Positions 779-51,914 of a DNA stretch of 56,277 nucleotides are shown here, in pieces. Origin of the DNA: a virus (taxonomy: Duplodnaviria; Caudoviricetes). The translations under genes and the position numbers were made by a program. Numbering within the stretch: the first letter of the stretch is position 1; every line of letters begins with the position of its first letter. The notes beneath the pieces are model-generated. The model was not told the DNA's origin, did no database searches, and saw only the letters and a list, made by a program, of their open reading frames with translations. The stretch spans positions 1 to 56,277 of IMG/VR virus record IMGVR_UViG_3300034683_000619. One strand, given 5' to 3'.

Positions 779-1624
779 CTATTGTCTGTAGGATCCCTCT
801 TTTGCCAGGAGCAGGGTTTCAGGGGAAGGGATAGTCCATCCGATCCCATCGGCCACGGTTGAGGTATGCTCATCGTCGCTGCTCGCAAACGCTGTCAGCC
901 TGGCTGCGTACCGGTGGTGCTGGCGCAAAACGTTGTCACCTGCAGCCAAAACCCAGCCCGGCAGATTGTCGAGACTCTGCATGGACCCCCGGCTGATCGT
1001 CCGGTACATGGCATACAGTGTCGCCGTCGCATACTCGCCAGCTTCAAGGGGATAATAGTGGTTCCAGGCGGCTGATTTTCGCCGATACACCGAGAGCAGC
1101 AGTTTCCGCATTTCAAAAAAGAAACGGTCCAACGCCGATCGATCTCCCCGCCAGAAAGCAGCGAAATCAGCGGCCCAGGGGCTGGGGGACTGTTCAGCCA
1201 TAGCGATGGCTCGCTCGATGCGATCGGTGGAGGTGTCCCACTTGAGGTTGGCCAGGACACAGTTCTTTGGGTCGCCGTCAATAAAGACCGATCTCCCTCC
1301 ATCTTTTTCGCCCGCCGGGTCGAATGCCCGCAGCACGGCCAAATGCACAGTGATATTGCCCAGGTGGTGATCACCCACCAGCATTCTCCCCTCCACCCAC
1401 CGTTGCCGCATCAACCGTTCGTGCTCAGATCTGGTTGATTTGATCCGGCCCATGGTCGAAACCAGCAGACCAGGGTGCCCGGCAATTTCGGACCACCGCT
1501 CGCCGGGAAGGTCCTCGATCTTTCGTGGCGAGAGTGTACCGCGCTTCCATTTGTTGTAGTGGCTACGGCAGTACCCGTGTCCGTAGACGGGTTTTCCGCA
1601 TTCATCGATCTTGCAGGTGTTCAT
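779..1624 (-). CDS. Zn-finger + NUMOD4 + degenerate HNH fused to a sigma-70 region-2-like domain
   Basis: C-x4-C-x9-C-x2-H; ERWSEIAGHPGLLVSTMGRIKS (NUMOD4); VHLAVLRAF..VFIDGDPKNCVLANLKW (HNH-like); GDRSALDRFF..AGEYA..GWVLAAGDNVLRQHHR (sigma r2-like); ATGA overlap at 1621-1624. Confidence 0.7.
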   Translation of the reverse strand: MNTCKIDECGKPVYGHGYCRSHYNKWKRGTLSPRKIEDLPGERWSEIAGHPGLLVSTMGRIKSTRSEHERLMRQRWVEGRMLVGDHHLGNITVHLAVLRAFDPAGEKDGGRSVFIDGDPKNCVLANLKWDTSTDRIERAIAMAEQSPSPWAADFAAFWRGDRSALDRFFFEMRKLLLSVYRRKSAAWNHYYPLEAGEYATATLYAMYRTISRGSMQSLDNLPGWVLAAGDNVLRQHHRYAARLTAFASSDDEHTSTVADGIGWTIPSPETLLLAKEGSYRQ

Positions 1625-1986
1625 TGCAGGCCCACCCATCCCCGCCGACCGCCTTTTGGCGCAAACTTGCCGAGCTTTATCGTCACATAGTGCGCCCAGT
1701 AGTAGGGACTGCTGTGTGGTGATTCGGTTTCGTCAGCGAACGTGGCGCTCAGGGTGAAGACCGCTTTGGTATCCGGGGCAACAGTGACGGTACAATCCCC
1801 TGCAGCGGTTTCGGCTCCGGCCCAGTAACAGTTGGCGAGCTTTACCCCGTCTTGATAAAGCTGGAACCCGGTCACCTCCGGTTCCTCCGGAGGCGTATAG
1901 CCCCACTCAACGTGTATTGATCGTGTCTCCGCCCAGGCAAACGCCGAGACAAGCAGCATCACCAGCAGGAGTATCCGTTTGATCAT
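1621..1986 (-). CDS. Signal-peptide protein, FN3/Ig-like
   Basis: MIKRILLLVMLLVSAFAWA signal peptide; W..VTGFQLY..F.LSA..ES.HS resembles an FN3 pattern; ATGA overlap. Confidence 0.7.
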   Translation of the reverse strand: MIKRILLLVMLLVSAFAWAETRSIHVEWGYTPPEEPEVTGFQLYQDGVKLANCYWAGAETAAGDCTVTVAPDTKAVFTLSATFADETESPHSSPYYWAHYVTIKLGKFAPKGGRRGWVGLQ

Positions 1987-3877: not shown

Positions 3878-5275
3878 TTATCTCTCTGGACGGGTGAAGG
3901 TGGTAATGGTCTCTGGACGGGTGAAGGTAAATGCCGGAAAGTATCTGGCCCGTAATCCCACCGAGAAGACCGCCCCACCAGCGAGACAACCTCCGGACAT
4001 GGCCAGGGTGCAGCTTTGGATGGTCGCCGCCACTCCCCCAGTTATGGCTCCGCCATGCCCCGATGCCGTGCGGTGGATGGTTTTGGTGGCAACTCCGCCC
4101 CCCAAGGCGCCACCATGGGTAACGATTGTCCGCCAGACCACATTGACCGACTTCTGAGCAGTAACGCCGCCGGTGACGGACCCGCCGTTTGCCAAACAGG
4201 TAACCGCAATGGATTGCCCGGCTCGGCCACCGATGACCGGGCCGCCCTGGCCTACAAGCGAGAGCGTTTGTAGGCCGCTCGCCGAGATAACCGCAGCGCC
4301 ACCGGACACAAGGCCACCCGTCGGTTGAATGCGGACCGCTTGCGCCACGGAAGCATCTCCCCCGGCGACAGCGCCATCACTGCAAAGATGCCATCGACCC
4401 ACGGCAATCGGGGATCGTCCGCCACAAACAGCCCCGGTGCTGGCCGTGTAGATGGTCGACGCCAGCACAGCGGCCACGCCGCCGGCAACGCAGCCGCCGG
4501 ATCCGGACATTGTGGCAACCTGTAGGCCACTGACAGCTATGGCAGCAGCCCCACCGGCCACCGCACCCCCGGAAAACAAGCCGACCCGCGCCGCCCTGTG
4601 CACGGCTTGGCCGCCGGTCACGGCTCCACTTGTTGCAGAAAGAGCCTCGGATTGCAGATTGACGGCTATGCTCGGTGCCGTGCCACCGGCCAGGCCACCG
4701 CCGGTAACTTGGTGACGAATCGCCCGCAGGCCGGCCCATTGCCCGCCAATGACCGCTCCACCCATAGCGATCTGGGTGGTATAGGCCAGATTGGTGTTGC
4801 TGGAAAGCGCTTCTCCACCGCAAACCGCCCCCCCATCGCCTGTCAAAACAATGGATTGCTCGACAACTCCGCCCTCGGTGGCCACAGCAGCCGAACCAGC
4901 GATAACCGCGCCTCCGGTTCCTTGAAACACCACGACCCTGGCCAACCATTGGCTGGTCTCGATGTACTGCCCGGCCCCATCGAGTATGGGCTCGCCGAGT
5001 CCGTCACGAAGAAGAGAGTCGTGTCCGCAGACCGCCCCGCCATCGCCTGTCAAAACAATGGATTGCTCGACAACTCCGCCCTCGGTGGCCACAGCAGCCG
5101 AACCAGCGATAACCGCGCCTCCGGTTCCTTGAAACACCACGACCCTGGCCAACCATTGGCTGGTCTCGATGTACTGCCCGGCCCCATCGAGTATGGGCTC
5201 GCCGAGTCCGTCACGAAGAAGAGAGTCGTGTCCGCAGACCGCCCCGCCGGCTGCTATCAGCTCAATATAGGCCAT
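3878..5275 (-). CDS. Gly/Ala-rich repeat structural (fibre/appendage) protein
   Basis: Many GGAVxGG repeats; contains a 207-bp duplication and a C-terminal TFTRPE x2 repeat. Confidence 0.75.
   Translation of the reverse strand: MAYIELIAAGGAVCGHDSLLRDGLGEPILDGAGQYIETSQWLARVVVFQGTGGAVIAGSAAVATEGGVVEQSIVLTGDGGAVCGHDSLLRDGLGEPILDGAGQYIETSQWLARVVVFQGTGGAVIAGSAAVATEGGVVEQSIVLTGDGGAVCGGEALSSNTNLAYTTQIAMGGAVIGGQWAGLRAIRHQVTGGGLAGGTAPSIAVNLQSEALSATSGAVTGGQAVHRAARVGLFSGGAVAGGAAAIAVSGLQVATMSGSGGCVAGGVAAVLASTIYTASTGAVCGGRSPIAVGRWHLCSDGAVAGGDASVAQAVRIQPTGGLVSGGAAVISASGLQTLSLVGQGGPVIGGRAGQSIAVTCLANGGSVTGGVTAQKSVNVVWRTIVTHGGALGGGVATKTIHRTASGHGGAITGGVAATIQSCTLAMSGGCLAGGAVFSVGLRARYFPAFTFTRPETITTFTRPER
4833..5248. 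repeat. 207-bp tandem duplication (69 aa, 2 copies)
   Basis: ccatcgcctgtcaaaacaatggattg... at 4833 and 5040; copies appear identical by eye. Confidence 0.95.
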
Positions 5276-5281
5276 TTATCA

Positions 5282-5704
5282 TCAAGCCGGGGTGCCACTG
5301 CTCATCTGGAATTTCGGGGTGATATCCACATGGTCGCCGTCGTTGGCCGGAGTAAAGGGCGCGGTCAGCCGCTCGGCCCAAAGTACGGTGTTGTCGGCGT
5401 CGGTCACGTAATACCCGTAAATGGTGGTGTTGGTGGTCAGGGTGCCGGTGAAGGTGAACACCTGCTGGGCGTAAGTGGCCTCCGAGGGGTCACTGGCCGG
5501 GTTGACCGTCCACGATCCGTTGGCCATGGTCTTGGCGGCGTACCCGCCTCCGGTGGCCTCGGTATAGCTGATACCGGTTTGTGCCGGGGTGACATCGTTG
5601 ACGAACAGCCGCAGGGTAAGGTTGTTGCCGCCGGCAGGACGGGTATTGTTGAAAAAGGTCTTGAGGATTTCGTCGGCGCCGAGATCGGTTAAAATGAGTG
5701 CCAT
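5282..5704 (-). CDS. Phage structural/fibre-associated protein (140 aa)
   Basis: LRLF.ND.TP..EATGGGYA..W..Y..Q.FTF..IYGYYV family pattern; AGGAG RBS. Confidence 0.75.
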   Translation of the reverse strand: MALILTDLGADEILKTFFNNTRPAGGNNLTLRLFVNDVTPAQTGISYTEATGGGYAAKTMANGSWTVNPASDPSEATYAQQVFTFTGTLTTNTTIYGYYVTDADNTVLWAERLTAPFTPANDGDHVDITPKFQMSSGTPA

Positions 5705-5839
5705 GGTGTTGTTCTCCTGTTATTTTTACGGTCAATTAAGCAGCACCGCCACCCTGGCGGAGCGCTGTGGGGTGGCTCGTTGTGCCCATTCGGAGTCGAG
5801 ATCCTGGTGATAGGCCTCTGGCCAGGTTGGTGAGGCGCA

Positions 5840-6106
5840 TCACTTGCCTCCTATTTTTTCGACGATCCCGGCGAAAAGCGCGTAGGCCAGGGCACTCACG
5901 ACGATCCCGGCAAAAACGATTTGCCCTCGGTCCGCGGCTTTGCGCATGGCTTGCCCGAACATGAGGTCTTTCTGAAACTCCTTGACCTGCCTTGGGTCGT
6001 CGATGTCCACGCCAAGGATGGCGAAAACCTGCTTGACGGCCTCTTTCGCCGCAGTCTCCGAATATTTGCAGGTGTCCTCTTGCTGCGGTTTTGTGCACTC
6101 GCTCAT
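5840..6106 (-). CDS. Membrane protein with a C-terminal TM helix (lysis-associated, putative)
   Basis: LGVDIDDP..FQKDL.F pattern, then a hydrophobic helix; ATGA overlap with the holin. Confidence 0.7.
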   Translation of the reverse strand: MSECTKPQQEDTCKYSETAAKEAVKQVFAILGVDIDDPRQVKEFQKDLMFGQAMRKAADRGQIVFAGIVVSALAYALFAGIVEKIGGK

Positions 6107-6279
6107 TTCACACCATTACGGGATTTGACCCAGGCCTCGGTGGAGTAGGCCAGTGTCAACAGGCCGCCGATGATATAGGCTATGGCCTCGATGTGCTCCG
6201 GGCTGAGGTTGTACCCTAGCAGCGCCGCCAGTGGGGTAAGCGCCTTCATTGCCTTGGTGATTATTTCGATATTGGGCAT
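6103..6279 (-). CDS. Putative holin (58 aa)
   Basis: TAAGGAG RBS; two hydrophobic segments and a basic C-terminus; first gene of the operon. Confidence 0.65.
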   Translation of the reverse strand: MPNIEIITKAMKALTPLAALLGYNLSPEHIEAIAYIIGGLLTLAYSTEAWVKSRNGVK

Positions 6280-6296
6280 GTGATTTCTCCTTAGGC

Positions 6297-6363
6297 AAAA
6301 AAAAAGCCCGGAAAGCAGACGCGGGCACGCAGGGTGCCGTGGCGATGTCTTGCTTTCCGGGCT
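6297..6363 (-). terminator. Branched intrinsic terminator/attenuator in the holin-operon leader
   Basis: AGCCCGGAAAGCAAGAC...GTCTGCTTTCCGGGCT, inner hairpin GGCAC/GTGCC, followed by a U-tract. Confidence 0.8.
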
Positions 6364-6371
6364 GGTTAAGC

Positions 6372-6440
6372 TGTCCCCGTGACAGGGAGGCAATCAGTTG
6401 CGGATAAATAAAATATGCTCTAATTTGCGTCGTAAATCAA
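6372..6440 (-). promoter_or_regulatory. Late promoter 2 plus conserved leader box
   Basis: TTGATT(6440-6435)-N17-CATATT(6417-6412); CTCCCT-N5-GGGGACA at 6389-6372, also present in the terS leader. Confidence 0.6.
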
Positions 6441-6475
6441 CAAAGACATGCATGTTCTCACTGACAAACTGCTTA

Positions 6476-9400
6476 TCACTCCATCATTTTGTTGAGCGAG
6501 TCCATTGTTGATCTGATCCTCGCCTCGACATGCTTCACCCGCTCTTTCTCGCCACCCTTGCGCAACAGATCCCTCCGCATCTTCTGGAGCTTTTGCACGC
6601 GCCTGTAGGTGACGGCCGCCCTGCCGATGAGCCGGGCCTCTGGGTTGTCGGCCATGTATTGGCGCACGTCGCCGCGATTCTCGCGCAGACCTTCAACCTC
6701 TGCCGCATGCATGTTCAGCTGTTTGATGTTGCGGTAAAACGCGGTCGACGTTGCTGACGAGTCGGCGCTGTCGCCATAGAACCTGCTGACCAGCGGGATT
6801 TTATACGTCGGCAAATCCTCACCCGTGAACGCTGAACCTGCAGTCTGCATTGCCTTTAACGACTCCCTTCCGACCCCGCCAAGCGCCTGCCCGATCAGGT
6901 AGTCAATCTGGTCTGGCGTTGGCGAGAGTAGTCCTGGGGTGTACTCGTTGCCACCAGTAAGGAAATTCAGCGCCCGTGACAATCCCACACCTATAGCGCT
7001 CGCGGTATCCTTCATCCGTGAATGGCCGGGTGTCGGCTTGAGAGGGTTGAAGTTGGGAAGCGCTATGTTCTTTCCGGTCCAGTCCTTGTTCTCGCTGAGT
7101 GCAATCAACGGATCAATGACCGTCGGGGCGATGGTCTGCACAGAAAACCCGGCATTCCCCACAGGGTTGAACGTCTCCGCAAACGAACTGAGGATGCTTG
7201 CCACACGTTCACCGGTTCGCTCGCCGCCGCTCAGCGCCCACTCGGTCGCAACCCGGGCGAGGTTCGGAATGACGTTGAAGCCCAAGGGCATCGGAATGGT
7301 GGCATACTTCTTGTTGCCAATCGGAACAATGATGCTCCGCTCCTTGATAAAATCCTTCGGCTCGTCGTCACCAAACCCGGCGGCGGCCAACAGCACCGCT
7401 TGCGAGGCACCGAGCAGGAGACCGCCGGCCAGGATCTTTTTACCAGCGGGACCGCGCAGGGTCCGGTACAGCTTTTCCGTGCCTTGCACCGCGGCATTGA
7501 AAAAGGCGTACATTGCCCCGGCTTGCGTGGCCACCTTCCCCTTTCGGTTGAAATTCAGGGTGATGTTTTTGGCTAAACTGGCAGCTCGTTTCCTGGAAAG
7601 GCCCTGGCTACGCGCTTCCATGTACACCGCCAGCCGGGAGGCGTTTTCCATCACGTCGTTATACAGACTCACCTGCTGTTTAACCCAATTGAAACGGTCT
7701 GCTGCCTTGCTGGCTGCCGTTGACAACATGGCCCGCTTGAGATCTTTCGCTCTGGCGTCGGCATCCTCGAACATATCCCGGAAACCGGTGGTCCCGCCTT
7801 CAAGCTGCATCTCCCGCCATGCCCGGCCGATTTCGGTGTTCAACGGTTGGCCCTTTGCATCGGCCCATATCGCCTTGAACAGCGGTCCAATGCTGGTCGC
7901 GATACGCTTGGCCACTTGTTTCTGTCTTCCGGCAAGGGGCGTGTTGGTCAGGTTCAACAAGGCTGCCCCTGCGTCTCTGATCGCATTCACCGGGCCAAAC
8001 ACCAGGTTGTACTGGGTGTTCACCGCGCTGAACCAGCGGGTCAGCATGGCAGAGGTGCGCAGGATCGTACCGAGCTGCTCCACGTCCAGGTTCTTGAGCG
8101 CTTCTGCCAACCGTATACCGCGCTCGCTCCGTTCGTTGAATAGGACCGCTCGTTCCTCGATGTGCCCATTTTCATTGACGAATCGGTGGACCACCGCATT
8201 TGGCTTGTTCTTGTACCCCGGGTCCGGCCGAGAGATTACAAGGCCTGTCACCGGGTCAAACTCGCGGACCATCGGCGGTGTCTCGATTGTCCAAACGTCC
8301 GGATTGGGATTGGCCGCCGCCAGTCCATAGAGCGCCTTGGATATGGCCGCCTTCTCCCCACGGACAATCGCCTTCTCTCGCTGCATGACGATGTGCGCCA
8401 GTATATCGACCACCTTGCGGTTGCTGCCGGTCCGGGCCCGTGTCGCAGAACCTTTCACGGAGAATCCCTGTCCGATCCCTGTGCCGTTGTCCATGTCTTC
8501 GCGATGCAGGGGGACGTAATGCTCGAAGGCCTCCGCCCAGGCTTCAACGACCTCACGGCCTTCCAACTCGTACTGCACCAAAGTGGCGCGGGTCTTGGCG
8601 ATGAAGCGTTGCCATTTCTTCGCCAGTTCCTGGTATTGGCGTCTCCGTTCAACTGGCAGGTTGGCCAGTACCTGTTCAGCCGCCTCGTTACTCATCCCGG
8701 AGAGCGTGGTGTTATCCCCGAGAAACGGCTTGGCGTGCCGTATCTTCCGGTGGCGTTCCCTGGCCTTGACGTACTGCTCGATAATCGGTTCCTCCCGCAG
8801 TCGATTCAATTCCTCGCGCACAACCAACAACAATGAATCATCGGCGTCGCCGGTCTCCACGTCTCGCTCCGCCGTTGCCAACTCGCGCTCCTTCTGGATG
8901 AACCGCTGCACGACAGCGGACTCCTGCAGGCGGTCCCGATCGGCCTTGGCCTGCTCCTTTAGGGCGGCAAGTTCCTCCTCGTTAGGATTGCGGAGTCGCA
9001 AGGATTCGTTCGCCTCCGGAGCGTGCAGGGCGTGCATGTACTCCTCAAACTCAGACAGGTCGCCCCCTTGGATCTCGCCAAGTTCTTTCATCAACGGGTT
9101 GACCTCGGAGATCAGCATATCCTCGGTGCGTTTGGCTGCCCGCTTGTGATAGAGCTCTTCGGCCATGCGCACGTCATGCTCTTCGCTGATTGGCCCCAGC
9201 TCCTGCTCAATGTTGTCCTGAATACGTTTCAGGTCGATCAGTTTGTCCTGGACACTGTACAGAAAGGTATCACGCTTGGAGTCCTGCGGGGTTTGCCATG
9301 CGGGCCCGGTCCCGTTTCCGGTAAGTCCACCAGCCACGGAATAGCGCACATCCGGATTGTCGGCGTCAAACTCCCCGGTGTTGATCTCGGCACTTTTCAC

Positions 9401-12400
9401 CTGATTGGGCTCAAAGACAACCACGTGTCCCTCGTCCTCAAGGATAACCCCATCATGGCCGGCAAGCTGCAGCCGTTTGGCGTGGGCCTTGGCTTCTTCC
9501 ACCGTGCGAAGGTTTGGCAACTGGTGCGCCTGCATCCGCTTTGGATTTTCTACCTTGAGGTAGAAGGCCCGGTTCGCCCCATCGATGCCGGCGTAGCCAC
9601 GCGAGTAGTTGGGGTCCATGGCAAAGAAGAAGCCCAACCCGGCGCCAGGACTGTGCGTCTTCTGGCCGACCTTGTTCGTGTCGAAGGTCCAGAAGGTTTC
9701 CGGTGATCCGTGATACACTGGCTCTGTGATTTGCGAATCACCAAGGAACCGTTTCAGGGCCGGAGAATTAGGGTCGACGGATTTGAACATCTCCCGCACC
9801 GACAACATCGCACTCTGTGCCGCATTGCCCCCACTGGCCGCATTCACAGCAGCCCGAGCGAAAATCACTAGATCCTTATGTGACAGGGTGTCGGGTGAGG
9901 TGATGCCAGCCTTGATCAGCAGCTTCCTGAAGAAAGAAAGTATACGGTCAACGATGGATAATTTGGTATTGGCGTTGTCTTCGACAAGATAGGCCGCAAC
10001 TTCGGACCAGTAGTGTTCCGGTTTGGTATTTTCCGGAACCCGTGCCATGGCTGCGCGGATAGCATCACCAACAATCCCATTGACCTTGCTCCGCTTTTTT
10101 AGGCTGCCCAGGATGGTCTGGTATTCAGCGTCGTCCGTGAACCCGAGCCGGCCGGCATGTTCGCCCATTTCGTGCAGCAGGACCGGAAAAGTTTGGCCTT
10201 TCTCGATACCATCGCGCACCAAGTAGGCTGTTCCGTTGACATAAGCACCCTGGATGGAGCCTGATTTGGAATATTTGACGGATGCGGTCTTTGAGCTGTC
10301 AATAACTCCCCGCATCTCTTCCTGGCTATCGATGATGACGACGCGGCCAGGTTTAAGGAGCCGGCGAGTTCGGATTCCGCCAAGCGATGTGCGTAACTCA
10401 GCCTCGATGTCGGCGCGGTTTTCGGTGGGGACGGTGGTGGTTACTGACAACTGTGCGCCAGTCGTCTGCCCGCTCTCAGTTCCTGCCAGCTCCCGTTCCA
10501 CCTCCACCAGCCGCTCACGCATCCGTTTCAATTCGTCGGCCTTTGAAAATTCAGCGCTTGCCCTGGCCCTGGTCGGATCCAAGTCCCGCTTCGCAATGTC
10601 CAGGCTTTCCTGCAGGAGTTGCACGTTACCAGGAATATTTCTGGTCTTCCTGTTGACCTCTGTAAAAAGTTTGTCCAGCGAGTTGAGGTTAACCTTGTTG
10701 CTTACTCGTATCACCGTGCCTTTTTCAGTGACATTGATACGAAACGGCGCCTGCCCATCCTCCCTTGGCACCTCGGCCTCAAAGTAGAAAAACACTTCCT
10801 TGGTAGGTTCACCGCGGCGATCCCGCCCGGTTTCGGTTTCAACGGACAGATCAAACTCGATACCGTTCACAATCACGGTCCCTACCTTGACCTCGCCCAT
10901 GTCGTCGGGTTTGCCATCCATGGCCTGGTTGGCCAGGTCAGCGATAGCTCTTCTGGCGGCGTTGCGCGAAATAACCAGCTCGCCGTTGACCATCATGTCG
11001 AAAACCAGAGCGTCGCCAAGTTTTTCGTCGATCAGGTTTTCAGCCTTCTGCTTTGATCTCGTCTCTTCTCCGTCAATATTTACCGAGAATTTCCCGTTAT
11101 CTTTTTTTGCTTCATCGTATTTTTCAAGGACATACCTGAACGGGTTGTTATCGGCTCCCGCTTGCCTGAGCGAATCAAACCCAAACACCTTGCCATCAAT
11201 GGTAATAGACCGCTGTGCAGCGTTTCGTTCTGCCTGGTCAATGGCTGTCGTTACCTTGGGAGCCAGCTCTTCGTGTACTGCAATCAGCCCCGGGTACGTT
11301 TCAACAATGTTCGCCAAGCGGTCAGCCTCGTCTTTGACACCCCATTGTTGTCGGTCAAATGCCCGTTGTTGCCTGGTCAGCTTCTTGATCTCCGCATCCA
11401 GCTTGACCCTTTCCAGTTGTAAGGGGTTTCCTGAAGCGATAGCGGCAATCTCAGCCATGCCAACACTGTCCTCGTCATCGAATTCCATGTTGAACTCGCC
11501 TTTATACTGACGAATTCCGTTGATCATCCGCAGCTTGGTAGCGTTCAGGCTCCACAGCTTGGCATCGATGGTGGTCTCAGTTGTGTAGGCCAAGATTTCA
11601 ACCTCGAAATTCTCGAGGCCATATTTCTGCAGAAGTTTGTTTCCCTGACGAATAATGCGCCCTTCCCGCTGCTCGATGTCGCTCGGTTTCCAGGTCACGT
11701 CAATGTGGTGCAATGCAACAAGCCGCTCCTGGACATTGGTACCCGCTCCCATTCGCGGGGTTGAACCAATGAGCACGCGAACAGCCCCGGCATTCACCTC
11801 GTCGAAAAGCGCCTGCTTCTGCTCGTCGGTATTGGCCTCTTGAACGAAACGGATTTCATTTGCGGGTATTCCCATAGAAACCAGCGAATCCTTGAGATGC
11901 TGATACCCGTTCCACCCGCCAGCCTGGGCAATACGCAACTCTTCCATCTCGTTGGTATCGTATTTCTCCAAGGCATCCAGCGCCCGTTGTTCTGCGGCTT
12001 CGTCGCCGGCACGCTCGGCCTCGGCCAGTTTTTCCCGCAGGGCATCATACGCGGCAAGAATCTTTCGGTCGCCCTGAGCCTTTGGGACAGACCTATCAAG
12101 GAAAACAAGCTGGGTACCGCGGTCCTTCTCCCACTGCTTGTAAATGTCATACACCCGTTGCGCCGCCACATCGAGTTTCCCACCCGGCTCTCCCTGTGCC
12201 CTGGGGTTGACGGCGCGCACATCAAGTGACACTTTTCTTGCCTGGTCCATCAGGCGCAGGCGCTTCCTATTACGCTCGGTCACATCTCTCTCGTCAGGCA
12301 GCGCCTCAAACCCGGCAACGATCTGCTGCAGTTCGTTTTCTTGGGCCGGTGTGGGCTGAACATTGACGCTGACTCGCCCACCACCTCTCACCCGGGGGAT

Positions 12401-15400
12401 AGGGAAGTCTCTCCCCTTATCCTCTCGGTACCACCGCTTGATGTCATCATTGGTCACGCTATCGGCGAACGAATAATAGAGATCCATCAGCGCCCGCATG
12501 TTGGACCAGTCCCTCCCTAGACGATTCACCTCCTTGAGTCCCCGTCCTGATTCCGTTGGCTCATACTCAGTAGTGGCGTCGACGAACTGTGCCCGCCATG
12601 CGTCAAAGTGATCCAGCCCCATATCTTGCAACTCGTCAGCGGCCAAGTACCGCATCAAGCCGTACATCTCCACCGCCGAGTTACTGATCGGTGTGCCGGT
12701 CATAAACGCGACTGATCCGCCCGTTTCACGGAGCACCCTGACTTTCAGCCACAAGTCATACGCCTTGGCCGACCCGGCCCGCGGATTCATGCCCCTCGCC
12801 TGCATGTTGGACGAGTAAAAGAGGTTTTTGAATTCGTGGGCCTCGTCCACGGTCAAGTCATCAACCCCCATCTGCTCAAAGGTCAAAAGCCGATCCTTGT
12901 CGGAGGCACGGTCCTGTAACTTTCTCAAGCGTTCAACGATCTTGTCGCGCAAGGCCTCCGCCTGTTTGACCGTCAAGGGTTTTCGGGGCCCATTGAAACC
13001 ATCTTCAATAGCTTGCTCTTCCGCTTCACGAACAGCCGCCTCTGCCGTTTCAAGTTCCGCTTCGAGGTAGCGCGCCTCCGTGACTGGGTCGATTCCAATG
13101 AAGGCAAACGACGAATGCGGCACAATAACCACGTCCCAATCGCCCGTTGCAATCCTGGCGAACAATCGTCGCCGCTTGCTCTTTTCCAGATCTTTCTTGC
13201 TCGCTGCCAGCACCCGGGCGCCGGGATAAAGCCGGTACACATCAGCGGCAAATTGTTCAACCAGGTGATTGGGGACCACAATCATCGGCTTGCGAGAAAG
13301 CCCCATGCGCCGACGCTCGATAGCTCGAGCAATGCCTGTAAAGGTTTTCCCGGCCCCTACCGCATGGTCGTACAGGACAAACCGGTCAACGATCCCCCGC
13401 CAGATCCCGTTCTTTTGATGCCTGCGGAGCGAAATCACTTGATCGGGCACCTTCCCGGGGAACTGTAGATGTTGGCCGTTGCGCTGCCGGTTGACCCTGA
13501 CGTTAAACTTCTTGTTGAACAGGTCGACCAGTAATTTGCGACGCTCGCTGTCTTTGAACACCCACGTTGAGAATTCCTCTTTGATTTCTTCGACCTTGGC
13601 CTTGGCCAGTTCGGTTGCATCGGCATCAAAGGTTACGTTGCCATCACTGTCTTTAGTGTTCACCCTGATACTCTTGCTGTTGAGAAGCGCCTCGAAAAGG
13701 AGCGATACTCCACGGTGCGGGGTGTTCCACTGCTTTGCTGTGCCGGTGCTGTCGTCGCCGTAAACGGAAAAGGTGTTTGATGCCCGCCCAAAACGCACAG
13801 TGCTCCGTGAACCGGTAAGGTGGGTGAGGAAGTCAGCGTATACCGATTCTGGTACCCATGTTGCCCCCGGCATGACCGTCACCTTGTCAGCCCCCCAAGG
13901 CTCGGGTTGAATCTTCTCCAAAGCCGCTATATTTTTTTCTAGGCCTTCGGTGCTGGCTGCATTCAGTTTCTGCGCTACGTTGCCACCGAGGTATTCATCG
14001 GCGGTTTCCCAGGCGCCGGTTTCGGGGTTGCGGTAAATCAACGGCTCGTCACGATTGTCGTGTAGTTCGGCAATGACCCCCTGTTCATCCTTTCCCATCA
14101 GCTCGGCAATGGTCTCAAGATCAACCCGCCCAGTCTCGGACAGGGTGATGGCCAAGGCGTCCTGCGGGTCACTTGTTTTTTCCGGGGCACGGTAGGGGAA
14201 GATGACCCGGCGCGACATGATTGCCGCCAGGTCTGCCGACGCTTCACGCGGTTCCCTGCCAAGTTTTTTTGCTTGTTGCTTGCTGATCGGCTTGGCATAG
14301 GCTTCTTCCAGCGACAGAACAAGTGCACCATCCGGCATGCTTGCCAGGAGCCGAGCGATAGGCGCCGAACTCAGGTGGTACTTGTGCTGTTTGAGGAACG
14401 CATCGTATTGTTGTTTCAACTCCTTGCGGTTGGCCTCAATGTCCCGATCAACCGATTCGGGCGATGTTTCCAGTAAGATCTGCTTTTTCAGCGTTGCCAG
14501 GAGTTTTACTGCGTCGGTCAGCCTTTGGTGGTCCAGTTTACCGAGCCGGTAGTGTACGGGCACCTCGCTGTCGGTGTATCGCTTAATTTCCTTGGCGTTC
14601 AGTCGTCCGACCTTGACTTTGTTCCCCTGCCCGTCAACCTGATCGACCTCTTCAGTCCAGGTACCATCATCCTGCAAGGTCAGCTTGTTGGACCATGGCG
14701 TTTCCGGGGTGAGCTCAACGCGACTCAGGATATAGGATCCCGAATCGGTCATCTTCATTTCCCGCACCATCATCAGTTTGCCGGTCTGCTGATCGATGGA
14801 GATAGACCCTTCCTCGGCTCCGGACAAGGCAATCTCCAAAGCGTCCACCATGGTCTTGAACCGATGCCCGGACACCTCGGTCGTGCTCTGTGTGGACATA
14901 ATCCCTTTCGGTAAAGCCGTGCGAAGAGCTTTGGACAGATCACCTCTGAAATCCTTGCCGTCATAGTGCACGGTGATGTCGCCTTCACGGCGCATCGATC
15001 CTGATCGGTCCATGGTGCCAATGATCATATCAGCACGGGCAGCAAAGTGCGCATTTACCGTCATCGGTTCGCCTGTCATCCGGTCAACCACTTCAACCGT
15101 GTCCAGCCATGACGGCTGTGCGGGTAGTGGTTCGCGCACTGTCTTACCTTCGGCGTTCTGGGTATACCCGGGCTTCCTCAAGATGATAATATCCGTGACA
15201 ACGTCGGTGAGGGCGTTCCCTTTGAAAGCGGATTGTGGGAGCCGGACCGCTGCCAGCAATTCGGCCTGTTTGGCAATCTCTTTGCGAACGGTCGCGTCTT
15301 TGGAGTCCATCAGGTACCTGGACACAACAAAGGCCTGGATGCCTCCAGGTTTCAGGGCCTCGAGCCCGGCCAGGAAGAATTGGTTGTGGATCGAGTGCCG

Positions 15401-18400
15401 GTTGATAGCAGGCAGGTGGGGGAACGAAAGCGAGGTTTGCCCGAACGGAGGATTACCGATCACCAGGTCAAACGAACCGCTGGGCAAGGGAAGTTTTTCG
15501 AATGGTGTGTGAAAAATACCCTCTTGAGGGTAAAGAGCCTGTGCAATGCCGGCGGTGATGCCGTCAAACTCGGCGGCAACGAATTTGGTGGATCCGGATA
15601 ACTCTTGTGGGACCAGGCCTATAAAGTTGCCGACACCGACAGATGGCTCCAGGGTGAGTCCGCCCTTGAATCCCAGGTGCTGCAGGGCGTCCCACATGGC
15701 GGAGACCACCGTTCCAGATGTGTAATGGGCGTTTTGAGTGCTATTGCGGGCTGTTTCCAGCTCGGCAGCCGTCAATAACCCTTCCAGCTCCTCGACGCGG
15801 GCCTGCCAATCCTCCTTGACTTCACCGGTTACGGCGTTGCGGAAAGCGTTGGGGATGCCGCCCCATCCGACGTAACGGGCAAGTATCCGCTGTTCGTCCG
15901 GAGTGGCTCGGCGCTGCTCGGACCACAGTTTCTTAAGGGTGCGGATGGCCTCAATATTGTCGCGGTACTTTTGCACCTGTCCACCCTGGCCAAGGTTTAC
16001 CTCGTCAGTGATGACAAAGTTCTTGGCCGGGATGGTCGCAGGCGCATCGGTCAGCGGTCCGGATCCTCCATTTCTGCTATCACTTGCGGTTCCGGGGGGC
16101 TCAGGATGTATTTTGGGAGAACGACCTCTTCTGCCTCGTGAAGCTGGTACCCGTACTCCATGAGTTCCCTGATTTCCGCGCTTGCCTTTTCCGCTGCGGC
16201 CAGTGCCACGGTCTGCAGGCGGTTCTGCTTGACCAGATCCCGAACGAACTTCGGCCGCCACTGATACCAGTGGTCTATCGCCAGCTCCTTCAACTGCTTG
16301 ACCGTCTTGCCGTAAGGACTGCCCATCGCTTTCCGCGCCTGCGCTGCCGATGTTATCATCTTGCCCCCCTCTTGGTTGTTCCTGCTTCTTATCTACTTGA
16401 TTTATTGTAGATGCTTTTTCAATAACGGTCAAGTCTCCAGCCTTTACATCGGCAAGAAACCTCTGCAGGTAGGGACGGATGGCCTTGCCGAACTGATCGT
16501 GGAGATACTGAATCAACTCCTTGAGCGAATAGCCGACCTGTTTCGCATCATTCCATGCCTTGACGAAATGGGGCTTTGCTTGGGTATAGGTTTCCTCGTC
16601 AAATGTAAGGCCGGAGCCGAGCCGGTTCTTTCCACCAAACAGCTGGCTGAGACCTTCCATAGCCGACTTGACGCCTTCAAGGGCAGCTATGCCGCCTTCC
16701 TTGGTGATCTGGCTGGCGGTTTTCTTGGGCGTCCTTTCCAAACCGCTCGTTTTCACCTCTTCACGCTGTCCGGTTTGTAACGAATGCACGATGAAGGTGG
16801 GGTCATTGTCGCCTTGCTGCTCGGGGTTGGCTGGTGCCTTGGGTTGACCTGTTTGCGCCTTGTCAATAGCTGCTGCGTGAACCTTGGCAACGAAGTTTAC
16901 CAGCATGGCGCCATCAAGAAATTGTGGTGGGGGAGGGCCTTCTCCCTCCATGCCATCGTTTACCCATTGCTCATACCGTTTTGCAAACGCAAGCTCAGAA
17001 GACATGCCAGTAACTGTGACGTTTTGCCACCCTTGCTTTTTCTCCTCTTGCGGACGAGGTGTGGCTTCCATGGCAGGCCACACTCCGGTGTGGCGAATGA
17101 ACTCACTCCTTGTAAACTGTTGGTCAGTTTTTCCAGGCTTCTGCGCCCACAGCCGGTCTTTCCCTCGCACATGAGTATTGACAACCGACAACATCCATTG
17201 GTCAGTGCTCTCGTCACGCCAAATCTTTGTTACCCTGACAAGGCGGGAGCCCATTAAAACAAGGTCACCTACATTGGCCGTCCTTTGATCTTCTCTGACG
17301 ATGTACCGTGGTTGTTCTCCTTGTTGCTGCGTATCATTGTCCTTTGGTTTGGTAAAGACTGCCATCTCAATAGCCCTGGAGATGACTTCTTGTCTGGAAA
17401 ACCCAAAGCCTGGAGGGTACGGCCTGCCAATGGTGTTGCGGTTTCCGTTATTGTCAACCACTTCAAGCACGAAACTGCCGTCATCTGAAGGTGAAGAAAC
17501 AATCTTAAAGCCTTTCCCTGCTTGGTCGGTGGCGGCGCCTTTCCTCTCTATGTCGCTGGCAAATTTCTCCTTCGCTGTCAACCGTTGCTTGGTGGGTGTC
17601 TTGGCCTGAACCGGCTGCTCTTCCTCCCCAAACACATCATCGAGCATGGCGACAAGGTCTTCGTCGGACGTGGCGGCCAATTCTTGTTCAATGGATTGAG
17701 ATCGTGCAGGTAGGCTGGCCTCCGCTTGCGCGGGTGCCGTTGCTGTTTCTGCGCCTGGCAGATCAGCTTTTAAGTTGGCCTCTGGAGTGGTTTGCGCCTT
17801 GGCTTGATCCTCTTTTTCCCTCTCCGCCCTTCTCCTCTGCAGGAAAGCCCCCAGCGACTCACCAGGTTGACGTGTCAGTGGTGCTTTCTCGGTGCCAACA
17901 GCATCACGCCTTATTTGCTGGTCTCGAAGGAATCCTGAAGTGTCAGAAGCAGGTGAGACAAGGTTTGTCTCGTTTTGAGACAAGGTTTGTCGCACCTGTT
18001 GATTGCGAAGGAAAGCCTCTGTTTGGCCGGTTATTTCTGCCGGCCGCGTTGCGCCAAGGTTACGCGGCAGGGATTCTGCTTGATTTGTTGCATTTATCGC
18101 AACATCACTTACCGATTGTTGCTTATCTTCATTATTATACGACGTTTTAAGGCCGGAAAGAGCCTCTCGGTGTGCTGCGCGAAGTCGCGACCGTTGTTCA
18201 GCTGTGTAGGTCCAGTGATCAAGATCCTCCTCGGTGAAACTCTCTGGTCTCCGGCGGATCAGGTCTTCCATACCTGAAACCGCCTCGTCTGGTGCCGGAA
18301 AAACAGAGCCGGCGCGGGTTGTCGCGTAGGTGTTTCCCTTCCACGCCCTGGCCCCCTCCTGGCGCTCGGCCATTCTGTCGAAATAGTCCCCCTGCTCGCT

Positions 18401-37739: not shown

Positions 37740-39290
37740 TTACGCCACCCCCACGCCTTGGGGACGCATCCCCCCATTCGGTCCAGAATACCGGGAGAGC
37801 CGGTCGCGCCAGGAAACTGCACGCTCAGGCTTTGGAATCAGGGCAGTCTCTCCCTTCAGGGCCACGGCACCGGTACGGAGAGCGTCCGCCCCATGGCTTG
37901 CCCAGTTGTGGAGAGGGGACCGGCGGAACGCGCCTAGCCTCTCGTCCCACTCGCGCCGGTAGTTGTCCAGGCAATCGACCAGCTTGGCGCACCTGGTTTC
38001 ATCGATCACGCAAGTGGAAAGGAACGATCGGGCCGCCTCGATGCCAGCAAGTACCGCCTCGATGTCGCGCGGCCTGGTCACAACCTCGATCGGTTTGATG
38101 CCCAACTCCTCGGCCTTCTCCTGTCGCCGTATGCCGGTGCCCAGTTCCCGGACGTTGGCATCGTGCGGCATGTAGTGCTTGCCGTAGGTGTAACCCCGCT
38201 TGTCCAACTCTCGGGCGTAGAACGCCAGGCCCTCGCCGGACGCCTCCAGGTAATCGATCAGCCGGTTCTGTGCGCCAATCCGCTGGCGAAAAATAATGGT
38301 CATGGAATCATCCATTCCGAGATCCCAAAGGGTGTCCACCGGGTAGCCATCGTCGTAGGGCACGGCGGTGATCCGGCCCTCCTTGCGGATGCGCTGCATC
38401 GCCCGGGCGTAGTAGGCACCCTCGATCGCGGCCTCGAACGCCTCTTCTGGCGTCCCGGGAAACTCTCGCTTCATGTCGTCACCCTGCTGCCGGGACTTTT
38501 TCGCGTACCATGCGCGGGCGTCCGGGTCGATCGGCTCGCCGACCTTGGCCTCTATCCCGTCCAGGTAATCGTGAAGCTCGGCCGGCACAGCCACGGCATG
38601 GGCCGGCAGCCGGTTCTCGGTCCCCATCCACCAGCCGAAAAAATGAAACCTGAAATCCAGCATGGTCAGGGGCGTGCCGGCATCGCGCAGGGCCTGCGCC
38701 TCCTGACACATATCGTAGAACGCGCCTTCCCTGCCCTCGGCAGTGCTCTCGACGATGATGATGTTCCCGGCCCCGACCGTATTGAATGCGCCGGTCCGAA
38801 TCTCCCTGGCCACCTCCGGCTTGCGGGCTGATATTTTGCCGTACTCACTGACATGCAGGATCTGCAGGGTACCACCGCGGTGGCTGGTGCTGACGTCCAC
38901 ACGCGAGCCATTGGCCCACTCCAGGGTCTCTTTAGCGTCAGTGACCAGCGGGACGGCGTCTTTGATCTGGCCTGGCAGGCCGTCGTAGGCGAATCGAATC
39001 TTGTCGAGCTTCTTTTTTGCGTCGGGGAGGGTGATGTCAATGACGCCGGCCTGGGTGTGCGGTGTCCACAGGCAGCTGTCGAGGATGAACATCGCGATAA
39101 GAGTGCTGAACCCGCGTTGCCGGTCCTTGAGAATCACGTTCAGCCACCACATCTCCGACCAAAACCTGGCCTGGGATTCGTTCATCTGGAACGGCACGAC
39201 CTGGCCGGCCTTGTTGGTGATCCGGTACAAGTTGTTCATGCGCCAGTCACGATCGGAGAGCAGATGCTTCAGTTCGGCCGGAGTGGTCAT
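37740..39290 (-). CDS. terL: Terminase large subunit
   Basis: KDRQRGFST (Walker A), LHVSE (Walker B), ESTAEG, WDLG..D, PHDA, SHGADA. Confidence 0.95.
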   Translation of the reverse strand: MTTPAELKHLLSDRDWRMNNLYRITNKAGQVVPFQMNESQARFWSEMWWLNVILKDRQRGFSTLIAMFILDSCLWTPHTQAGVIDITLPDAKKKLDKIRFAYDGLPGQIKDAVPLVTDAKETLEWANGSRVDVSTSHRGGTLQILHVSEYGKISARKPEVAREIRTGAFNTVGAGNIIIVESTAEGREGAFYDMCQEAQALRDAGTPLTMLDFRFHFFGWWMGTENRLPAHAVAVPAELHDYLDGIEAKVGEPIDPDARAWYAKKSRQQGDDMKREFPGTPEEAFEAAIEGAYYARAMQRIRKEGRITAVPYDDGYPVDTLWDLGMDDSMTIIFRQRIGAQNRLIDYLEASGEGLAFYARELDKRGYTYGKHYMPHDANVRELGTGIRRQEKAEELGIKPIEVVTRPRDIEAVLAGIEAARSFLSTCVIDETRCAKLVDCLDNYRREWDERLGAFRRSPLHNWASHGADALRTGAVALKGETALIPKPERAVSWRDRLSRYSGPNGGMRPQGVGVA

Positions 39291-39817
39291 GCCGTTTCGC
39301 CCTCGTCGCCAGGCAACGTGCGCTTGGAGTTGGCCTGGATTTCCGCGATGACCGCGGCTACTGCGTCGGCCGGGTTGCTCTGCTTATTGTCGCGCTCGAA
39401 AATCCCGAGGTGCCGGCCGATGTCGACCAGGGCGGCCCGCTTGTCGGCCAACTTGAATCGGACCTTGTCACCGTCGATGGTGATCTCCTGGATGGCCGCG
39501 GCCTGGTCCCGGGTGAGTTTCTGGATGTCCTGCAGGCTGAACCCATCCTGGAGGTAGTCCTGCATATTCGCGAATCCGATCTTAGCCAGTTCGGCAACCA
39601 CAGCGTCGGCGGTGACCAGTGTCCGTTTCTCCCGATTCGCCATGGCCTTTTCTATCTCGGCGACAACGTGAGTTTTTACGAGCAGTTGCGGACCTATCCA
39701 GCTAGCGGTCTTTGCGCTGTACCCGGCACGGATTGCGGCCTGGGTAGCGTTGAGATCAACAAGATATTCCGAGACAAATATCCGTTGCTTTGGGGTTAGA
39801 GTTCCGCCTCTTGCCAT
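39287..39817 (-). CDS. terS: Terminase small subunit
   Basis: LTPKQRIFVSEYLVDLNATQAAIRAGYS (Terminase_2 signature); start at 39817. Confidence 0.95.
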   Translation of the reverse strand: MARGGTLTPKQRIFVSEYLVDLNATQAAIRAGYSAKTASWIGPQLLVKTHVVAEIEKAMANREKRTLVTADAVVAELAKIGFANMQDYLQDGFSLQDIQKLTRDQAAAIQEITIDGDKVRFKLADKRAALVDIGRHLGIFERDNKQSNPADAVAAVIAEIQANSKRTLPGDEGETA

Positions 39818-39829
39818 TTTCAAAATCCC

Positions 39830-39893
39830 AAAAAAAAACCCCGACCGAACGCAGTACCAGAAATGATCTGGTGTTATCGCGTTTGGTCGGGGT
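39830..39893 (-). terminator. Branched intrinsic terminator/attenuator in the terS leader
   Basis: ACCCCGACCAAACGC...GCGTTCGGTCGGGGT, inner hairpin ACCAGA/TCTGGT, followed by a U-tract. Confidence 0.8.
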
Positions 39894-39987: not shown

Positions 39988-40182
39988 TTACAAACCACTA
40001 TCTCTTTTTTTAGATCGCACCTTCAGGACCCTGGTATCCTTGACTGTTGGTGTCCGCACACCTCCATCAAGAAAACCTATTTCGATAATGAGCATGCCTG
40101 TGTGTTTCTGGGTGATGCTTTCCTTTGCCAGCTCCCTGGCGGTTTCCAGGGCTTCGTTCACCGCCAGCATCTCGTCGATCAT
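39988..40182 (-). CDS. Small basic protein, YezD/DUF2292-like fold (candidate late regulator)
   Basis: Helix followed by TGMLIIEIGFLDGGVR; GAGGG RBS; last early gene before the late promoter. Confidence 0.6.
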   Translation of the reverse strand: MIDEMLAVNEALETARELAKESITQKHTGMLIIEIGFLDGGVRTPTVKDTRVLKVRSKKRDSGL

Positions 40183-40322
40183 CAGTTATCCCTCTCACGC
40201 CTTGTTCAGTTTTAAATCAAAAACTTCCTGTGTTCCGGTTACGCTTCCGGCGTCGTCGTTTCGGCCCGACCGTTCACCCGCCCGTCAGCGGCGTCTTTCC
40301 CGCGTGTCATTTTTGCAGCCCG

Positions 40323-40379
40323 GCTCAACACGCTTGCCGTGGTATCGCACCGATGCCCCCACTGCTTCGGGTGTTATAT
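40323..40379 (+). other. Degenerate attC-like site
   Basis: GCTCAAC...GCCGTGG...CCACTGC...GTTATAT imperfect palindrome. Confidence 0.4.
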
Positions 40380-40398
40380 GGATCGGGTTAATTGCTTG

Positions 40399-40611
40399 TT
40401 AGCCTTCCGTAATTGCAGCATCGAGCAACTTTAAAAATTCCTCGAAACCATACGCCGCCTTGTAGTTCTCGCCGTCCCTTGTGGTGATGTGCAACGTATG
40501 ATTTACCCCGCAAGACACAGCCACCGAAACGATATGATCCACCCTCATGCAAATTGAATGCGTTTCGGTGTAAATCATTACGAATCCATGCGGTATTTTC
40601 GGTTCACTCAT
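40399..40611 (-). CDS. Hypothetical protein (70 aa)
   Basis: GGGAGG RBS; start MSEPK. Confidence 0.65.
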   Translation of the reverse strand: MSEPKIPHGFVMIYTETHSICMRVDHIVSVAVSCGVNHTLHITTRDGENYKAAYGFEEFLKLLDAAITEG

Positions 40612-47050: not shown

Positions 47051-47090
47051 GCCCCCCTTCCTGTTGGCGCAGGGAGAGGGGCGTTTTTTT
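47051..47090 (+). terminator. Intrinsic terminator facing antisense to the early operon
   Basis: GCCCCCCTTCCTG..CAGGGAGAGGGGC followed by T7 on the + strand. Confidence 0.55.
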
Positions 47091-49480: not shown

Positions 49481-49795
49481 TCAATATTCAACTCGTGACT
49501 GCAAAGCCTGCCGCGCCAATGTCGGGTATTCGGCAGCCCATTCCTTCCAGGCAAATTCAAAGTCTTCCTGGTCCTCGTAGTGGCCCGGCATCGGCTCGTG
49601 TGTGCTGATTCCAGAACCGTTTTCCGGGCACCAGGCATTCTGTGCGTTCACCAGGTCGTTAAAGGTGTTGAACCCGGTCAGCTCGACCGTCAACTCATTC
49701 AGCGCGTCGAACCTTGCCTTGAACTCATCTCTGCCTAGGTTGATCTCGATGCTTGTCATGGTAGCCTCGTGGTTGGTGGTATTCTGTGTGGTCAC
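49481..49795 (-). CDS. Hypothetical early protein (104 aa)
   Basis: GTGA overlap with the cro stop. Confidence 0.65.
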   Translation of the reverse strand: MTTQNTTNHEATMTSIEINLGRDEFKARFDALNELTVELTGFNTFNDLVNAQNAWCPENGSGISTHEPMPGHYEDQEDFEFAWKEWAAEYPTLARQALQSRVEY

Positions 49796-50043
49796 TTCTT
49801 CGCTTCTCGCTTGCCTGGCAAACGGCCACGTTTGAAGTTTATCCGACCATAAACCCGCTCAAGTTCACGCCGGATCTCTTCCGGTTTTCCAAAAAGCCAT
49901 ATTCGAATGCCGATACCAGTTATGTGTTCGACTCTTGCAGCTTTTGATGCGGTAAGTCGTTTTTTTCCCTTGAGCATTTTGCTGAAAAGCGCCGGGTCTA
50001 TTCCAAGTCTTTCTGATAACGATTTCTGCGTTGTGATCTTCAT
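49792..50043 (-). CDS. cro: Cro-like HTH regulator
   Basis: TQKSLSERLGIDPALFSKMLKGKKR HTH; divergent from cI. Confidence 0.85.
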   Translation of the reverse strand: MKITTQKSLSERLGIDPALFSKMLKGKKRLTASKAARVEHITGIGIRIWLFGKPEEIRRELERVYGRINFKRGRLPGKREAKK

Positions 50044-50151
50044 GACCACTTAATTATCGTCTAATAGACACCATGTCAAACAGAAAATGGTCTTAAAAAC
50101 TATTTTAATTTCTCGGAATCGCCGTATAATGTTGTCAAGGAGACAATAAAT
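50044..50151. promoter_or_regulatory. Lysis/lysogeny switch region
   Basis: TTGACA on the minus strand (50079-50074); TATAAT on the plus strand (50125-50130); GTC-N5-GAC operator-like palindromes at 50059-50069 and 50133-50145, with a degenerate copy at ~50090-50100. Confidence 0.65.
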
Positions 50152-50901
50152 ATGGGAATAGAGCCGATAAACGAGGTATTTGGGGCGGCCTTTTCGTTCG
50201 CGCTAAAAGGAAGCAAGAGGGGCACGCAGGCGAGAATTGCTACTGAAACTGGCGTGGACCCGGCAAACGTAAGCGCCATGAAACGGTGCGGTAAAGGGGC
50301 TTCTGAGGAGGTGAGAAGGCTTATCTTTTCAAAAATTTTAGAACTTCTCCCCGACTTCCCGGCCAAGACGTACGATGATTTCCTCCACATTGGCCGGTGG
50401 ATCCTGGACGGGCATGACCCGGAGCAGTGGAAGCCACCATTGCGCGACCAGCTTGCCCCGACCATGGCAAACGTACCGGCCAAAATCTCCCCCAACATCT
50501 CCCCCGGTCCGCCGGTGCTGAGCAAGATCCCGATTATCTCATGGGTGCGGGCTGGGGATTGGGCAGAAGTGGTTGACCCGTATCAACCCGGGTATGCAGA
50601 GGAGTGGATTGACACCACCGCCACCAGACACCCAAATGCCTTTGCCCTGGTGGTCCGGGGTGATTCCATGGCGCCTGAATTCATCGAAGGGGAAATCATA
50701 ACCGTCGACCCTGGGCGGGAAGCGGTTAACGGCAGCTATGTCGTTGCCAAGAATGGAGACGAGGCCACATTCAAACAGTTGGTGTTCGACGGACCGAACG
50801 TCTTTCTGAAGCCGCTGAACAAACGTTACCCGATCCGGGATATGACCGGGATCAACTTCCGCATCATCGGCGTGGTGGTGGAAAAGGTGAAGAGGTATTG
50901 A
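50152..50901 (+). CDS. cI: CI-like repressor (HTH + S24 peptidase)
   Basis: N-terminal HTH; VRAG cleavage site; GDSM and ATFK catalytic dyad. Confidence 0.95.
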   Translation: MGIEPINEVFGAAFSFALKGSKRGTQARIATETGVDPANVSAMKRCGKGASEEVRRLIFSKILELLPDFPAKTYDDFLHIGRWILDGHDPEQWKPPLRDQLAPTMANVPAKISPNISPGPPVLSKIPIISWVRAGDWAEVVDPYQPGYAEEWIDTTATRHPNAFALVVRGDSMAPEFIEGEIITVDPGREAVNGSYVVAKNGDEATFKQLVFDGPNVFLKPLNKRYPIRDMTGINFRIIGVVVEKVKRY

Positions 50902-51909: not shown

Positions 51910-51914
51910 CGCCT

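Follow-up and report, generated by a model that had tools for sequence, protein, structure and literature searches.

The window analyzed here, a 56,277-bp IMG/VR provirus record with an estimated completeness of 92%, has a lambdoid layout. An S24 LexA/CI-like repressor is encoded on the plus strand (50152-50901) and a Cro-like helix-turn-helix (HTH) protein on the minus strand (49792-50049). The early operon, also on the minus strand, encodes RusA, an SbcC-like protein, RecT, an MBL hydrolase, a replication initiator, SSB, and YopX; toward its 3' end come a 70-aa ORF, a 217-nt gap (40183-40399) with no unusual fold (z +0.5), and a 64-aa ORF, orf64 (39988-40182, minus strand). The gene order then continues with terS (39287-39817, minus strand; Pfam Terminase_2, E 2.9e-39), terL, a P22-type portal gene, and the capsid gene. 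The last gene of the structural operon is a 4775-aa "polyvalent" DarB-like ORF (6476-20803, minus strand) with N6-methylase/Eco57I, SNF2-helicase, ART-PolyVal, and LPD38 domains, and the C-terminal 400 residues of this giant protein have 129 relatives in IMG/VR at 48-58% identity. A second minus-strand late block comprises a 58-aa ORF, tail-like proteins, an HNH endonuclease, and an endolysin-like ORF. The subject of this study is a pair of leaders, of which leader 1 stands directly before terS and leader 2 between the giant gene and the second late block.

Several other features were observed in the same record. Two repressor-type modules adjoin each other, the S24 LexA/CI-like gene at 50152-50901 and an HTH_31 protein with an M78 (ImmA/IrrE-like) peptidase at 51550-52502, both on the plus strand. 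The right end (54016-55865, plus strand) carries a Type II restriction-modification pair, an N6_N4 methylase and an XcyI-family endonuclease (E 5.5e-115). Within the second late block, the ORF at 779-1639 (minus strand) resembles HNH/NUMOD4 homing endonucleases. A wastewater-metagenome contig matches positions 5286-5727, covering the 140-aa ORF at 5282-5704, with 6 differences in 442 nt; because the flanks of this match do not align, the 140-aa ORF is probably a separately travelling module.

Leader 2 occupies positions 6440-6297 of the minus strand. It begins with a promoter-like site, TTGATT (6440-6435), a 17-nt spacer, and CATATT (6417-6412), which agrees with the consensus at 8 of 12 positions and is therefore absent from the list of our promoter scan, whose threshold was 9/12. 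Six nucleotides separate the -10 hexamer from a 34-nt element, the box (ATCCGCAACTGATTGCCTCCCTgtcacGGGGACA, 6405-6372), which would span approximately +1 to +34 of the predicted transcript and is made up of a linear tract (ATCCGCAACTGATTGC) and a hairpin, UCCCUG-UCA-CGGGGA (6388-6374). After an 8-nt spacer, an interrupted hairpin of 59 nt with an apical 5-nt loop (6363-6305) runs into nine U residues (U9, 6305-6297) to form an intrinsic terminator; the terminated RNA is predicted to be 109 nt long. A ribosome-binding site (AAGGAG, 6292-6287) and the 58-aa ORF follow (6103-6292, minus strand, with its ATG at 6279), and the codon score favors this frame. No function for the 58-aa ORF was returned by Pfam or PHROGs, and its identification as a holin is not supported.

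Leader 1 has the same architecture on the same strand. Its promoter-like site, TTTACA-N17-TAAATT (39968-39940), agrees with the consensus at 9 of 12 positions and was listed by the promoter scan. Five nucleotides lie between the -10 hexamer and the box (39934-39901), which consists of ATCGGCACTGGATTCA and then the hairpin UCCCUA-CAU-UGGGGA (39917-39903). A spacer of 7-8 nt leads to the terminator hairpin (39893-39838, apical 5-nt loop) and its U9 (39838-39830), and the RNA predicted to end there is 105 nt long. The ATG of terS at 39817 lies 12 nt beyond U9. ORF callers placed the start of terS at 39901, inside the leader 1 box, because the frame stays open through the leader; the real start is at 39817, where the Terminase_2 match and the MARGG start place it. 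An open frame running from the box through the terminator and U9, in frame with the downstream start, is present in both leaders (6393-6279 and 39901-39817, minus strand), and may have arisen by chance.

In both leaders, a G+C-rich hairpin is followed by a U tract (U9), which predicts intrinsic termination. The leader 2 terminator folds at -36.9 kcal/mol (z -6.5) and that of leader 1 at -33.4 kcal/mol (z -6.9), and none of 200 shuffles was as stable. Folding of the sequence that precedes each run of at least five T residues, on both strands, gave 53 candidates in the window, of which the two leader terminators were the strongest (-34.7 and -31.6, with the next at -22.4); the only nine-T runs on the minus strand are those of the two leaders. 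The first-pass annotation had described the terminator as branched, which is wrong: each consists of one long, interrupted stem. Another G+C-rich hairpin (-22.4 kcal/mol), with T7 behind it, was seen at 47052-47090 of the plus strand, where it falls between two small ORFs and is antisense to the early operon. Because terS and the second late block have their start codons only 12-20 nt beyond U9, there is no room for another promoter. With strong terminators directly before essential late genes and no space for a promoter behind them, some form of induced read-through must, on this prediction, be required for expression of these genes.

The first-pass annotation had held that the terS leader, 33 kb away, keeps the order and spacing of leader 2, and that the box is kept while the stem sequences differ. 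Reading both leaders bears this out: the order is the same, the spacing is nearly identical, and a 34-nt box is common to two leaders whose terminator sequences are unrelated. In an ungapped 34-nt comparison of the two intergenic regions, the box gives the best match, with 23 of 34 positions identical, a value reached by none of 300 shuffles (maximum 22). This raw similarity is modest, and it is the pattern that carries the weight. CTCCCT-N5-GGGGACA is exact in both boxes, ATC-GCA and GATT are common upstream of it, and in both leaders all these motifs are in the same register with respect to the terminator and the -10 hexamer. The core occurs exactly twice in the window and not at all in the reversed control. 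A covariance model of the box scored 45.6 and 45.4 bits at the two sites, with the next match at 17 bits, and found no further copy in the window and 99 of 119 related loci (the other 20, mostly near-duplicates, lay outside this search). Neither leader had a blastn match among 50,697 phage records, and the core pattern had no match in IMG/VR. The 28 matches to the core pattern in GTDB species genomes and 41 in metagenome contigs are chance occurrences, since all of them lack both the upstream tract and a downstream T-run. A search of the whole window against Rfam 15, including its cis-antiterminators and phage RNAs, gave no match at the gathering threshold; the sub-threshold matches were only terminator-like, the best scoring 24.4 bits against a cut-off of 80. 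Two other readings of the box were rejected: as a sigma-54 promoter, because, by eye, one of the two elements is missing from each copy, and as a pac or cos site, because the second copy lies 33 kb away in the same promoter-terminator frame.

No RNA run was listed among the sequencing runs that contain this phage. The conservation of leader 2 was assessed by aligning contigs from four DNA runs to positions 4500-8500. One of these, a 33.5-kb contig from a soil metagenome, could be aligned over positions 8500 to 6296 and showed 208 differences and a single gap (approximately 9.4%). Among the differences listed (40 of 333; those of the soil contig run in positional order from 6335 to 6773, and we take them to be complete over that span), only 2 fall in the 147 nt of 6297-6443, as against 6 substitutions and 1 deletion in the 32 nt of 6444-6475 and 32 differences in the 298 coding nt of 6476-6773; for the listed differences, the contrast between the leader block and these flanks gives Fisher p values of 9e-5 and 2e-4. 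The conserved block extends from the -35 hexamer to U9, and the promoter stretch and the box are identical. One of the two changes lies between the -10 hexamer and the box (6408), and the other converts an A-U pair of the apical terminator hairpin to G-U (6335). The cassette is thus kept in a relative, with the whole of leader 2 nearly unchanged next to a gene that differs by approximately 10%. The homology of the soil contig ends exactly at 6296, right after U9, and other DNA lies beyond; the high conservation could also reflect recent recombination at a mosaic junction.

A second junction was found at leader 1. In a relative whose terS is 84% identical (locus L003), nucleotide homology to the window starts at 39846, in the 3' arm of the leader 1 terminator, and the sequence upstream of the equivalent position cannot be aligned to the window. 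L003 has a leader of its own before terS, comprising TTGCAA-N16-TATAGT, a different 5' hairpin of 9 bp, a strong terminator, and U9, and its box pattern occurs only in its own contig. Because the genes upstream of this leader are divergent, polymerase could come only from the leader promoter, and transcription of terS in L003 would have to start there and pass the terminator. A T9 hairpin directly before terS was seen only in L003 among the 33 listed of 35 terS-relative loci, a comparison that scored T9 hairpins and not weaker terminators. Among the 80 relatives retained of the 129 for the giant-protein C-terminus, the gene is in most cases the last of its operon, with no leader 2 behind it; terL is absent from five complete relatives that have the giant protein, and the relatives of the 70-aa ORF (4 loci) lie in other contexts. 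Mosaic junctions thus coincide with both terminators, at 6296 in the comparison with the soil contig and at 39846 in that with L003. Such a placement is what would be expected of a self-contained regulatory module.

What is read in the box may be the nascent RNA, the DNA immediately behind polymerase, or both. In favor of an RNA reading, whole-leader folds contain the box hairpin in both leaders, in the minimum-free-energy as well as the centroid structure; the two copies have U-G as the fifth pair of this hairpin, and the pair that closes its loop is G-C in leader 2 and A-U in leader 1. For a DNA reading, the sequence of the stem is kept while the loop varies, and the TCCC and GGGA halves lie one helical turn apart. 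The stems are identical and the loops differ (gUCAc versus aCAUu), which is not the usual signature of an RNA hairpin recognized by a protein. The suggestion that selection has acted on RNA structure was not borne out. The similar shape of the two long terminators is generic, and the only structure-preserving changes are the replacement of G-C by A-U in the box hairpin between the copies and that of A-U by G-U in the relative. Covariation is nearly absent, because there are only two paralogous copies of the box and one near-identical orthologue.

We propose, with about as much belief as doubt, that the two leaders are a processive-antitermination cassette of the Q or AlpA type, comparable to lambda PR'-tR', in which the box is the loading site. 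A moderate promoter of the sigma-70 type would fire at each leader. Unmodified RNA polymerase would stop at the long hairpin and U9 and yield only an RNA of 105-109 nt. In the presence of a phage-encoded factor, which we infer to come from the early operon, polymerase moving past the box at +1 to +34 would become terminator-resistant and would proceed into terS and the structural genes from leader 1 and into the second late block from leader 2. The box could act as a nut-like loading site in nascent RNA (a linear tract with a 6-bp triloop hairpin), as DNA, or as both. Processive modification loaded at the box is favored over a local switch between alternative structures, because the box does not overlap the terminator and the two terminators are unrelated. 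A shared loading site upstream of arbitrary terminators would also account for a box that is kept ahead of terminator sequences that are unrelated. The leaders had earlier been interpreted as a shared attenuator that blocks the late genes until a trans factor acts; the part of this view that stands is that read-through must be induced, and a classical attenuator is less likely, since the box and the terminator arms do not overlap.

The trans factor of that interpretation was not found in the record by family searches. Six-frame searches of the whole 56,277-nt record returned no match at E<=1 to the antiterminator families Q21 (PF06530), Qlambda (PF03589), and Q82 (PF06323) or to Phage_AlpA (PF05930), Pfam scans of the ORFs likewise gave none of the Q families, and comparison of the early ORFs with Pfam, PHROGs, and NCBIfam revealed no regulator family beyond the repressors. 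The gene for the factor could lie outside the record, because the record is estimated to be 92% complete. Within it, our guess at the factor, from position alone, is orf64, the last gene before leader 1. It occupies the place of Q as the last early gene and lies within the portion of the leader 1 region that L003 does not share. Its codon score (+0.29, against -0.80 and -0.53 in the other frames) fits a coding sequence. Three relatives with 55-58% identity were found among 1.84 billion representatives (P0003-P0005, on contigs of 1-2.3 kb), and the core of the family is EIxFLDGGVRxPTVKE. There were no relatives in IMG/VR, a word-indexed protein search returned only orf64 itself, and no family matched. 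The AlphaFold model has a pLDDT of 66, and a Foldseek search of the PDB with it returned nothing at E<=0.001. A lead from the Atlas to DUF6894 was rejected because its score of 0.81 was below the bar, and a PDB profile match to LRP4 was spurious. Both orf64 and the box are rare among neighbors with many relatives, which fits, weakly, a linked pair.

The cassette resembles the late control of lambdoid phages by Q in having a promoter with a strong intrinsic terminator approximately 100 nt further on, directly ahead of the late genes, and in the short terminated RNA predicted as the default product. It likewise stands where the early operon ends in a prophage of the cI/cro type, in a module bounded by mosaic junctions. 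Unlike the lambdoid systems, the phage encodes no Q-family protein and has two cassettes per genome rather than one, and the element that is conserved carries a hairpin and belongs to the transcribed part (+1 to +34), not to the promoter spacer. A conserved -10-like, sigma-dependent pause element, which in lambdoid late control stands in the initially transcribed region beside a Q-binding element, was not seen by eye in both boxes; TACATT is present only in the loop of the leader 1 box, and no hexamer of the TAnnnT type is common to both. The three Q families are described as mutually unrelated in sequence and as analogues only (PMC9388147), and a further unrelated antiterminator family is plausible for this reason.

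AlpA of Pseudomonas aeruginosa is reported to be a small antiterminator that works at two promoters, both with an intrinsic terminator behind them, and to have the site GGGACG-N5-GGTA in the interval that separates -35 from -10 (PMC7969949). The phage described here likewise has two putative target promoters, each with an intrinsic terminator before the first gene. The sequence of the terminator is irrelevant to the action of AlpA, and the terminators of the two leaders are likewise unrelated. Unlike the AlpA system, the record has no Phage_AlpA protein, and GGGACG-N5-GGTA is absent by eye from both leader promoter spacers. AlpA and Qlambda bind the promoter spacer, and the two spacers here (TACGACGCAAATTAGAG and TAGTAGACATGTGCAGA) are unlike each other by eye, agreeing at 6 of 17 positions. 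These unlike spacers, together with the missing factor, the absence of a shared pause element, and a hairpin whose stem is kept and whose loop varies, count against antitermination.

The lambda N/nut system offers a third comparison. In nut sites, the boxB loops are conserved and are recognized by an arginine-rich peptide, and boxA adjoins. As with nut, there are two copies per genome, each a linear tract with a short hairpin, early in the transcript and upstream of terminators. Unlike nut, it is the stem that is kept between the copies and the loop that changes, contrary to boxB-type recognition; neither leader box contains a boxA-like tract, the sites serve late rather than early operons, and no arginine-rich N-like protein was noticed.

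A different reading is that the cassettes are small-RNA genes, each giving a stable RNA of approximately 105-109 nt whose 5' box is a seed or binding region, with the late genes reached by antiterminated read-through from upstream. Each leader is a complete unit from promoter to terminator, a strong hairpin with U9 is the usual 3' module of Hfq-type small RNAs, and conservation lies in the 5' part and not in the terminator. There is a precedent in StxS of Stx phages, a working small RNA from the terminated PR' transcript of a lambdoid late promoter (PMC7547250). StxS has no sequence relation to the leaders, and its likeness to the short transcripts predicted here, which end at a strong terminator, suggests that these could be by-products with a function of their own in the lysogen. 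Because short PR' transcripts can acquire such a function, the small-RNA reading is partly compatible with antitermination. By itself, it does not explain why the cassettes stand exactly before terS and the second late block, and L003 has no co-directional upstream operon to supply the read-through. Part of the conserved box is also locked in a hairpin, and no Rfam family matched; we consider small-RNA genes an unlikely explanation.

Alternatively, the box could be a DNA operator in which TCCC-N7-GGGA near +25 binds a phage repressor or regulator that would block or clear the late promoters, with the terminators only as insulators. The phage does encode HTH proteins (the S24 CI-like repressor, the Cro-like protein, and HTH_31 with the M78 peptidase), and stem halves that are kept around variable central bases, with half-site centers 11 bp apart, typify a site bound by a dimer. 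The symmetry, though, stops at 4 bp, and the conserved flanks (GATT upstream and ACA downstream) are asymmetric. The fifth pair, T/G, pairs only as RNA on this strand, and the outer loop positions co-vary (G-C versus A-U). No similar site stands near the early promoters; a search allowing up to three mismatches gave 20 matches, in line with the 18.5 expected by chance. The terminators would still need to be passed, and an operator is distinctly unlikely to be the explanation.

The box could also be a cis-acting antiterminator RNA of the kind of HK022 put, Tn916 canT, and EAR, with timing set by promoter activity only. These elements, like the box, are transcribed upstream of heterologous terminators in mobile elements, and the position of the box at the 5' end of the transcript, ahead of unrelated terminators, agrees with this, as does the failure to find a protein factor. 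HK022 put has two stem-loops. The box has 34 nt and a single 6-bp hairpin, and it is far smaller and simpler than put, canT, and EAR; the terminator follows immediately behind it, and there is no Rfam match. Processive RNAs that act in cis are reported from mobile elements, and for canT the length needed is given as at least approximately 340 nt (PMC11658703). If the box worked constitutively, moreover, a very strong terminator 8 nt behind it would be pointless, and we regard a cis-acting RNA as very unlikely. That the similarity is a leftover of duplication or recombination, with no shared role beyond promoter and terminator, is highly improbable: mosaic junctions do lie at both terminators, and the PeSL cassettes of T4-type phages are likewise small, repeated, and regulatory and mark points where gene modules are exchanged (PMC4122927), but PeSL has a terminator and then an early promoter in many copies, the reverse of the promoter-box-terminator order found here twice in a temperate phage. 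A stretch of 34 nt in which 11 positions mismatch would also recombine poorly, and a box that alone is kept between fully diverged flanks argues for selection on the box. Each of these explanations accounts for less of the placement than antitermination does or leaves the problem of the terminators unsolved.

Returning to antitermination, a gain of a smaller kind lies in annotation, where strong hairpin-U9 leaders before terS may flag late-control modules that have no recognizable Q. The more specific possibility is that a 34-nt 5' element and orf64, a tiny protein of a rare family that the element would recruit to make host RNA polymerase terminator-resistant, form a previously undescribed system of late antitermination that is read in RNA like the N system, acts at late promoters like Q, and is swapped at the terminator as a portable module; we consider this unlikely. 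If the antitermination reading itself is right, a textbook arrangement of a promoter-proximal terminator and induced read-through would be built from parts unlike any known antiterminator or loading site, in a compact, portable, terminator-gated cassette whose factor is perhaps only 64 aa long. The phage would have two late entry points instead of one, and the cassette would be another independent solution to late gene control beside at least four unrelated ones (Qlambda, Q21, Q82, and AlpA).
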